From Thermoleophilia bacterium (GTDB taxonomy: Bacteria > Actinomycetota > Thermoleophilia > Miltoncostaeales > Miltoncostaeaceae), in assembly GCA_031362405.1 (NCBI GenBank), contig JANLSO010000056.1:2981-66980 (forward strand): a DNA stretch of 64,000 nt, written 5' to 3'. The notes beneath the pieces are model-generated. The model saw only the letters and a list, made by a program, of their open reading frames with translations, was not told where the DNA came from and did no database searches. The translations under genes were made by a program, and so were the position numbers. How positions within the stretch are numbered: position 1 is the stretch's first letter; each line of letters starts with the position of its first letter. This document shows, piece by piece, positions 5,218-6,368 of the stretch.

Positions 5218-6290
5218 TCACGAGACCCAGAGTCGGTCGAGTGGGACCGCGTAAAGGCGGTCATCAAGGCGGTACGCGTATGGGCCGGAGTGGAGCACGA
5301 CCCCTGCGAGGAACGACTCGCCTAACGAGTCTCGCAGCGTGCGAAGACCCTTGACGTCCTGGTCGCGGGCGCGGAGCCGGCCTTGATCTCGACGGCGGCG
5401 ACACCCCCGTCGTACCGCTCGAGGACCAGGTCGACCTCGGCTCCGTCGTGAGTGCGCCAGTGCCCCGTATGCGCGATCTCATCCGAGCAGGCGAGCTGCT
5501 TGTGGATCTCCCCGACGGCGAACGACTCCGTGAGGTGCCCGAGTTCCGTCAGCGCGCTGGGGGTGAGGCGGGCGAGGTTCGATGCGCCGAGCCGCAGCAT
5601 GTGGGCGGCAAGACCCGTGTCGGTGACATGGATCTTCGGGCTCGAAACTGCTCGGGCGCGCAGGGTCGTGCCCCAGGCGGGGAGGCGATACACCAAGAAG
5701 ACCGCCTCGAGCAGGCGCAGGTAGTTCTCTGCGGACGATGTCTCGAGGTCCGTATCTCGGGCGGCGCGGGAGACGTTCAGCATCTGGGCGGTTTGCCCAA
5801 CGATGCGAGCCAGGTAGCGGGGCATCCGATCGCGTTGTCTGATCCGCGAGAGTTCCACCACGTCGCGCTCCAGCACGCGAGCGAGGTAGTCGTCAAACCA
5901 ACGCGCCCGCCTTTGGCCTGGCGGCCTCGAGAGCGGAACGGGCATGCCCCCGCCCACGATCCGTTCGATGTATTCGGCCCGCGAGGTTGTCGACCGCGCC
6001 GAGACGACCATTTTGCCTGGATCGTTCAGGAGATGGTCGACGAACGTTTCGCGGACCCCATGGAGCTCGCCCTGCGAGAGAGGCCAGATCGCCATGATGT
6101 GAAGACGCCCCGTCAACGATTGCGCGGCCAAGGGAAGAGTCGCGTAGCTGGTCGAACCCGTGAGTACGAATCTCCCCGGTCGAAGTCCGCGATTCAGGTC
6201 CGCCTTGATGGCATCGAGAAGGGCAGGGGCATGTTGAAACTCGTCGATGAAGACCGGAGGTCTAGCATGAGATTCGGAATATGGAGACAC
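5218..6290 (-). pseudogene. AAA ATPase with DUF4143 domain, 5'-truncated and frameshifted near the 3' end
   Basis: Listed ORF 5322..6290 starts directly at the Walker-B-like FIDEFQ, so the P-loop region is missing. After EIKAGSAP the conserved tail RDQDVKGLRTLRDSLGESFLAGVVLHSGPYAYRLDDRLYAVPLDRLW continues in another frame, down to a TGA at 5218. Confidence 0.7.
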
Positions 6291-6368
6291 AAGAGCTAGG
6301 AATTTGGAGGACTCTCAAACCCGTATTTGGAGGGCCGCTAACGACGAAATTGGAGGGTCCTAGGAGAC
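6277..6368. repeat. four direct repeats with exact 23-nt period (core WTTGGAGG) plus a half-period AGGAG
   Basis: TGGAG occurs at 6282, 6305, 6328 and 6351. The units are GGAATATGGAGAC, GGAATTTGGAGGAC, CGTATTTGGAGGGC and CGAAATTGGAGGGTC, with TAGGAGAC at 6361. The stretch is low-GC and non-coding, between the truncated ATPase and pyrG. Confidence 0.8.

Follow-up and report, generated by a model that had tools for sequence, protein, structure and literature searches.

Between an ATPase gene that has lost its 5′ part and the start of pyrG, the pentamer TGGAG recurs four times at a fixed distance. To which of these genes, if to either, does such an array belong, and what would read it? We considered this question in the window, i.e. 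the whole 64,000-nt stretch of DNA analysed here, where TGGAG starts at positions 6282, 6305, 6328 and 6351, exactly 23 nt apart in each case. The 23-nt array units are, in order, GAATATGGAGA, GAATTTGGAGG, GTATTTGGAGG and GAAATTGGAGG; the interval 6277–6368, written as 23-nt units, reads GAATATGGAGACACAAGAGCTAG / GAATTTGGAGGACTCTCAAACCC / GTATTTGGAGGGCCGCTAACGAC / GAAATTGGAGGGTCCTAGGAGAC. On the ATPase strand the array consists of four direct boxes, YCTCCAWWT. Its parts are as follows (L127 is a related contig described below).

Box 1, 6346..6357, minus strand: CCCTCCAATTTC on the ATPase strand; nearest to pyrG and farthest from the ATPase remnant; identical in L127.
Box 2, 6323..6334, minus strand: CCCTCCAAATAC on the ATPase strand; 23 nt from box 1; core kept in L127.
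Box 3, 6300..6311, minus strand: TCCTCCAAATTC on the ATPase strand; 23 nt from box 2; core kept in L127.
Box 4, 6277..6288, minus strand: GTCTCCATATTC on the ATPase strand; promoter-proximal and degenerate, in exact 23-nt phase; without a counterpart in L127.
Extra AGGAG, 6362..6366, plus strand: 11 nt past the last TGGAG and out of the array phase; the aligned position in L127 is GCGCG.

The initial annotation had described an exact 23-nt array of four copies lying in a low-GC, non-coding stretch, and both descriptions held. We ran 300 first-order Markov simulations of the window, considering periods of 15–40 and both strands: the longest phased run of TGGAG was 2 copies, versus 4 observed, and runs of at least three copies appeared in 0/300. 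TGGAG at period 23 was also the only 5-mer with at least four phased copies in the entire 64-kb window; any word at any period reached at least four phased copies in 2 of 20 simulated windows. Tandem Repeats Finder did not report the array, because only a box of ∼9–11 nt is kept per unit while the spacers have diverged. The GC content is 0.49–0.53 around 6200–6350 versus ∼0.66 in the flanks, and the ATPase frame runs into stops within the array. The AGGAG noted 11 nt after the last TGGAG is indeed present at 6362, but it is not conserved in the alignment with L127 and is probably incidental. The degenerate sequence of box 4 is not peculiar to this locus: its CTCCAT variant occurs also in boxes of subfamily members L129, L160, L163, L164 and L165.

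A box search through the genome of origin (3.39 Mb, 212 contigs) found this array to be single, with no second array or inverted copy in the window or elsewhere in the genome. The sequence CCTCCAAWT occurs genome-wide in 7 copies versus ∼19 expected; thus, there is no enrichment outside the array.

On the side away from pyrG, the array is adjoined by the minus-strand ORF 5322–6290. This ORF has a full-length match to Pfam DUF4143 (PF13635, E = 3.8e-40, profile positions 1–160 of 160), and to Pfam AAA_14 at profile positions 63–128 of 129 only. Its match to the PADLOC model of PDC-S01, PDLC04790, is strong (E = 2.5e-104) and covers profile positions 79–380 of 422. The remnant thus has the PDC-S01 profile match and the DUF4143 (PD-(D/E)XK-like) domain; it has neither a complete AAA_14 module with Walker A nor an intact ORF. 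The absence of the 5′ part of the gene, as first described, was confirmed. The relevant features of the gene are the following.

ATPase-nuclease remnant of the AAA_14+DUF4143 (PDC-S01) type, a pseudogene as read from its sequence, 5227..6257, minus strand: delimited by tblastn with the homologue P0003.
Deletion junction, 6257..6258, no strand: a pairwise DNA alignment shows that the window lacks ∼195 nt found in L127, among them the start codon and the codons for Walker A.
Putative extended −10 of the former ATPase promoter, 6259..6267, minus strand: TGC-TAGACC on the ATPase strand, inferred.

The closest full-length homologues of the ATPase are 70–77% identical and 406–423 aa long. One of them, P0003, is encoded on L127, a 7.8-kb metagenome contig. 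In tblastn with P0003, residues 48–354 aligned in frame −2 (6296–5376) and residues 356–404 in frame −1 (5373–5227); hence a 1-nt frameshift near 5373–5376 that immediately follows the EIKAG motif and removes the conserved C-terminal tail. The premature stop produced by the frameshift is at 5322–5324; the PDC-S01 profile match reads through one TAG. Just before the frameshift the D...E-x-K segment (EVDLVLE...EIKAG) is kept. With its start codon, Walker A region and C-terminal tail gone, the ATPase gene of the window reads as a pseudogene.

The decay appears to be recent. Comparison of the remnant with the L127 gene gave identities of 0.83/0.88/0.48 by codon position, indicating that purifying selection acted on the gene through most of the divergence; it follows that it began to decay late. 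An intact paralogue of the same subfamily was not found in the genome of origin; the next best paralogue scores 298 versus 526 bits and has an in-frame stop. Another contig of the same genome, C192, carries a decayed paralogue with a 23-nt array of its own, made of a different box of the GATATCAGTACTG type. A second DUF4143 fragment is present in the window itself, at ∼33931–34065; a convincing phased array was not found at this fragment.

The contig L127 shows the locus in a less damaged state. It has pyrG, an intergenic region of 194 nt, an opposite-strand 406-aa ATPase gene with Walker A and a methyltransferase gene, in the same order as in the window. Its intergenic region can be aligned to that of the window, and in both the pyrG −10 and three CCTCCAA boxes occupy the same positions. 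DNA homology between the two extends up to 6257 and resumes from ∼6288. The 7-nt box cores are identical at 21/21 positions and the 9-nt boxes at 26/27, whereas the rest of the array is identical at 31/48; from the array to the pyrG ATG the figure is 89/109. The difference between cores (21/21) and the rest (31/48) indicates that the spacers drifted but the boxes were retained. Box 4, the −10 and the first 16 codons, known from other subfamily members, are absent from L127, which points to a separate, smaller 5′ loss in this contig. On this alignment the proximal part of the element in L127 is to be read as either dispensable or also decaying. The array was originally described as replacing the missing 5′ part of the ATPase gene; instead, it looks like the natural upstream region of the gene, kept in relatives whose gene retains Walker A and reaches its usual end.

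If the array belongs to the ATPase gene, it should accompany this gene elsewhere. A DNA-pattern scan for TTGGAGG-N16-TTGGAGG-N16-TTGGAGG, with one genome per species, listed 80 loci, and a viral scan added 4; the 84 listed loci were scored with an HMM built from homologues of the window ATPase. In 15 of the 84 listed loci, the 5′ end of a PDC-S01 gene lies 30–105 nt from the array edge, and in 14 of these 15 the core on the coding strand is CCTCCAA. A random position would meet a PDC-S01 start with a probability far below 1/1000; therefore, the association of array and gene is not due to chance. For about 68 of the 84, the fetched sequence contains no PDC-S01 gene; these loci are simple tandem repeats with a 23-nt unit. 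The subset resembling the array of the window shows a conserved ATTGGAGG core, drifting spacers and an adjoining divergent gene start; it comes from metagenome-assembled genomes (MAGs) labelled Acidimicrobiia, Solirubrobacterales, Pseudonocardiaceae and others.

Other loci were selected by their protein alone. Within the same subfamily, 2–4 YCTCCAWWT boxes at 22–24 nt were present in 10 of 11 loci, with the information content of the units highest at C-CTCCAATT-CCGG; the arrays are confined to the promoter side of the gene. Among 40 protein-chosen PDC-S01 loci, 21 had at least 28/46 self-matches at a period of 22–24 in the 190 nt upstream; the same threshold was reached by 8 of 2000 segments drawn at random from this genome and by 0 of 800 shuffles. 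A class-wide search with the PADLOC model produced >150 matches in 84 of 301 genomes. In the 30 class-wide loci that were fetched, most genes have either direct boxes in a 22- or 23-nt phase or palindromes upstream; the box sequence depends on the subfamily (examples are CAATCAGCC, GCGAATC and GACGAATTC).

The array of the window fits into this set. It has at least two direct boxes at 22–24 bp, of the type that matches its subfamily; its orientation is that of 14 of the 15 pattern loci and of the subfamily loci; and it lies directly upstream of the gene 5′ end, at the deletion junction. Absence from all relatives had been named at the outset as an observation that would speak against the array; it is present in relatives, and there it is tied to the ATPase gene. 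By this comparison of loci, the array is an orphaned copy of a widespread, so far unpublished PDC-S01 cis-element.

Intact relatives suggest what kind of element it is. In L161, L164 and L163 a gap of 4 nt separates the proximal box from TGC-GATACT, TGC-CATACT and TGC-GACACT, respectively, with the ATG 6 nt further on. Similar TAnnnT hexamers are found 6–9 nt before the ATG in L048, L090, L110, L126, L128 and L129; most protein-chosen subfamily loci have a −10-like element and a near-leaderless start directly after the last box. A start codon 6–9 nt after a −10-like element means that the mRNA is probably leaderless or nearly so, and a −10 within a few bases of the last box means that the boxes would cover the −35/spacer region and 70–90 bp upstream of it. 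These promoter calls are readings of the sequence. In the window, the TGC-TAGACC following box 4 (TCTCCATATTCC) stands in about the same register, 2 nt further, as the −10s of L161, L164 and L163; the deletion in the ATPase gene and the break of the L127 homology begin right beside it. The assignment of TAGACC, with its final C, as a −10 is weak.

An RNA element was considered as well and rejected: a permissive Rfam scan of 5000–7500 gave noise only, with no family match, and transcription would start downstream of the boxes.

What could bind the boxes? Full-length PDC-S01 homologues are single genes of ∼400–425 aa. PDC-S01 has been listed as the fourth most common prokaryotic defence candidate, an ATPase fused to PD-(D/E)XK that is experimentally unvalidated (PMC12988326); the DUF4143 domain has been classified as PD-(D/E)XK (PMC3424549). 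In the literature found on DUF4143, PDC-S01 and COG1373, otherwise made up of passing mentions, upstream arrays are not described. We modelled P0002, the closest full-length homologue, with AlphaFold2 from a 76-sequence alignment (pLDDT 91.7, pTM 0.91). The model has these parts.

AAA+ core: residues ∼1–135.
Helical lid: after the AAA+ core.
Predicted winged helix, residues 218–287: helices 218–230, 238–244 and 249–261, and a beta hairpin 265–287.
C-terminal alpha/beta domain at the place of Pfam DUF4143: conserved D...ExK motif.

The best Foldseek neighbours of this model are the uncharacterised archaeal AAA+ ATPases 2qen and 2fna (TM 0.42–0.52), followed by STAND proteins (Apaf-1, Avs), RuvB, ORC subunits and DnaA; a sequence search of the PDB gave no match. 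The third helix of the predicted winged helix begins with TAE.Y..LLE, which is near-invariant in the subfamily with CTCCA boxes and differs in subfamilies with other boxes. Such a pairing of helix and box could reflect direct readout; it is confounded by shared ancestry, i.e. co-inheritance of the two. Five distant ATPases found behind TTGGAGG arrays do not have the recognition-helix residues of the subfamily.

We consider it probable that the array is the own cis-element of the adjacent PDC-S01 gene, serving self-regulation by the docked protein product, and that it is now an orphaned relic. Four direct YCTCCAWWT boxes, 23 bp apart, would end at the former promoter of the ATPase-nuclease gene. 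The predicted winged helix, situated between the AAA+ module and the PD-(D/E)XK nuclease-like domain, would dock on the phased boxes, and several protomers sitting side by side would control transcription of their own gene, in the simplest case repressing it by occlusion of the promoter. We infer both the binding by the encoded protein and the direction of regulation, with the structural model as a guide. As 23 bp make ∼2.2 helical turns, successive protomers would be rotated with respect to each other, and a spiral AAA+ assembly would fit better than same-face dimers; the same number, not being an integral number of turns, speaks against simple same-face cooperative repression. In the window, the ∼195-nt deletion after the putative −10 took the start codon and Walker A, and the frameshift the C-terminal tail. 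The array would still be intact because the decay of the gene is recent; with the gene dead and no intact paralogue of the same subfamily in the genome, it would be an orphaned relic. The initial annotation had offered a regulator-binding array among its candidates: the binding-type character of the array is what the compared sequences suggest, while the attribution to pyrG did not stand.

Among the alternatives we first weigh sites for some other host factor, a transcription factor or a nucleoid protein, or architectural elements belonging to an inherited promoter type. The location of the boxes directly upstream of the −10 is typical for activator sites, and TAE.Y..LLE is near-invariant although the second half of the box varies. 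We nevertheless find this explanation unlikely, as different PDC-S01 subfamilies of a single class have different boxes, and so do even paralogues of the same genome, which would not be expected from a shared host factor; CCTCCAA accompanies its subfamily across MAGs labelled Acidimicrobiia, Solirubrobacterales and Pseudonocardiaceae and, thus, follows the gene rather than the host. The lack of CCTCCAAWT enrichment in the rest of the genome, given above, also argues against a host factor.

One could also imagine the array as a docking or holding site for the nuclease, where an AAA+ polymer is kept inactive or becomes licensed, self-regulation being a by-product. The combination of an AAA+ module, a predicted winged helix and a nuclease-like domain would agree with this, as would the presence among the structural neighbours of oligomerising, DNA-loading AAA+/STAND proteins (ORC, DnaA, RuvB, Apaf-1, Avs); a spacing of 23 bp, off the helical repeat, would presumably suit a spiral filament. 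Yet the constant position at the promoter is explained more simply by autoregulation and an array has only 2–4 boxes, so we regard a holding site as improbable. An extended version is similarly doubtful: PDC-S01 proteins would be sequence-programmed AAA+ nucleases assembling on their own boxes in 23-bp phase, a site of self-nucleation or holding that sets the nuclease state and is more than an operator; the pyrG-side slot would be one where diverged cassettes of ATPase and array are swapped through recombination in the conserved flanks, and orphan arrays would act as decoy or titration sites.

An upstream element of pyrG, either an activator or repressor array or a feature of the leader, has very little chance of being correct. 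In its favour is the location: the pyrG ATG is at 6478 and the array lies 110–201 nt upstream of it, in agreement with the distance first reported, in a divergent intergenic region, and the array is upstream of pyrG in L127 too. The promoter of pyrG, however, appears to be elsewhere.

pyrG −10 hexamer TATCCT, 6444..6449, plus strand: ∼30 nt before the ATG, outside the array and 76 nt beyond it.

A TAnnnT hexamer, mostly TATCCT, is found at the same place before pyrG in L127 and in family relatives with readable upstream sequence. Phased TGGAG was found in none of 29 other pyrG loci of the family (330 nt read per locus, in about half of the loci on the wrong side of the gene); the upstream neighbours of pyrG vary (recN and others) in the family loci read on the upstream side. 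A DNA search of 40 relatives with 6200–6480 matched at the ATPase-coding end only. The array also stands beside ATPase genes at many loci without pyrG, in unrelated contexts, and the Rfam scan gave no leader family. No role in pyrG expression is demonstrated, and the array is not a pyrG control element; the leader or regulator proposed earlier is not supported, since the array travels with the ATPase gene.

Two further readings, both proposed earlier in outline, can be dismissed as barely credible: replicon iterons, and a mobile-element end or scar in the form of integrase arm sites or repeats bound by a transposase, with an insertion that truncated the ATPase gene. In their favour are the phasing and direct orientation of the repeats, the low GC and the placement of the array right where the gene is cut short. 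Pfam, however, detected no transposase, integrase/recombinase or Rep domain in the ORFs tested at 2382–9266 (five around the array, with pyrG in their midst, code for a GumK-like glycosyltransferase, a low-molecular-weight phosphatase, a methyltransferase, the ATPase remnant and an M20 peptidase), there is no second end, and the array occupies the same site in relatives that keep Walker A, which makes it older than the truncation.

The locus taken singly is of modest interest; the family-wide pattern supports a testable model. PDC-S01 is reported to be among the most abundant candidate defence families of bacteria and archaea, with an unknown mode of action (PMC12988326), and subfamily-specific phased promoter boxes provide a testable handle on DNA-module recognition, self-regulation and protomer spacing. 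To this the locus adds a syntenic pair with conserved boxes and drifting spacers, a box that stays with a single subfamily in MAGs labelled as belonging to three groups of actinobacteria, and a natural case of an array that has survived its dead gene. In the genome annotation, the ATPase should be marked as a pseudogene.

Compared with the phage-defence candidate PDC-S01 as defined in PADLOC (Pfam AAA_14 + DUF4143; COG1373), the neighbouring ORF is alike in matching PDLC04790 and DUF4143; it differs in that the window copy is a frameshifted pseudogene with neither start codon nor Walker A. Arrays of sites near the gene of their own binder are known from Orc1/Cdc6 with origin recognition boxes and from DnaA with DnaA boxes. 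The predicted AAA+ base, lid and winged-helix-type module of PDC-S01, together with sites arrayed beside the own gene, resemble these systems; on the other hand, the structural similarity is weak (TM 0.2–0.3), and PDC-S01 has a C-terminal nuclease-like domain and no link to replication.

The iteron-Rep modules of theta-replicating plasmids (P1, F, R6K, pPS10) have direct repeats spaced ∼22–23 bp apart beside the Rep gene, and iteron-type Rep proteins possess winged-helix domains and are autoregulated. Here, too, several direct repeats with about this spacing are located beside the gene of the presumed binder. Unlike in the plasmids, there is no Rep protein and no origin context, the loci are chromosomal, and the PDC-S01 arrays are short (2–4 boxes) and placed on the promoter of a gene for an AAA+ nuclease-like protein. 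Finally, as in classical autoregulatory operator arrays, the PDC-S01 boxes cover the −35/spacer region directly before the −10-like element of the presumed binder's gene; in contrast to such operators, the boxes are direct repeats, not palindromes, set at a strict interval of 23 bp, and an ATPase-nuclease takes the place of the small repressor as presumed binder.

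Compared with L127, a metagenome contig carrying pyrG, three array boxes, the ATPase gene and the methyltransferase gene in the same order, the window showed a divergence valley at the ATPase gene (5100-6300) when set against the stretches 4800-5000 and 6400-8100. Within this gene DNA identity was 0.64-0.81 and third codon positions were 0.48 identical, a value that may be near saturation at the local GC content; both flanks were ∼0.9 identical to L127, and in pyrG third positions were 0.79 identical with 97.6% amino acid identity. The synteny extended from about 4700 to about 8200. 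A valley between such flanks points to exchange of a diverged ATPase allele through recombination within the conserved flanking sequence.

On the other side of the ATPase remnant lies the following gene:

window 4414-5106, minus strand, methyltransferase gene adjoining the ATPase remnant

Its N-terminus resembled L127 about as closely as the pyrG flank did; good alignment to the 276-aa L127 counterpart was confined to about the first 95 residues. As the C-terminal half could not be aligned, this gene has probably decayed as well.

The L127 ATPase gene retains Walker A, and in its 5′ region (L127:2950-3010) the annotated GTG start is only about 24 nt past box 3. Other members of the subfamily additionally have box 4, a −10-like element and 16 further codons at the 5′ end, all missing from L127. 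This truncation is a second, independent 5′ loss adjoining the same array as in the window. The outer side of the array was seen to vary in two loci from Candidatus Poriferisodalis MAGs, L090 and L105, which are near-identical as far as the third box and divergent beyond it; L090 has a fourth box and extra sequence (very roughly 80 nt), both absent from L105. Judged from this pair, the outer array edge is thus an indel point.

The genome itself holds about eight loci of the same PADLOC candidate, PDC-S01, the majority of them damaged:

Other PDC-S01 loci of the genome, by contig
C140, in-frame TAG
C94, internal gap
C105, N-terminus absent
C192, stops; own 23-nt array with GATATCAGTACTG-type box
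C7, fragment
C145, PDC-S01 locus
C53:11917-13065, the sole copy in this genome of full-length appearance

A short second DUF4143-like fragment (E = 9e-7) was found within a long open frame at window 33931-34065 (minus strand); no convincing phased array was seen beside it.

A TAnnnT −10 hexamer, mostly TATCCT, is situated ∼30 nt 5′ of the pyrG start (window 6444-6449). The hexamer is kept across genera of the family (the window and pyrG loci L008-L033). The gene upstream of pyrG differs among the family relatives, being recN in several.

In two loci of the subfamily (L163:1843-2424 and L165:1904-2412) the PDC-S01 gene adjoins a gene for an archaeal-type ATPase (ATPase_2/DUF234). The closest structural neighbours of the AlphaFold2 model of an ATPase homologue, 2qen and 2fna, are likewise archaeal AAA+ ATPases.
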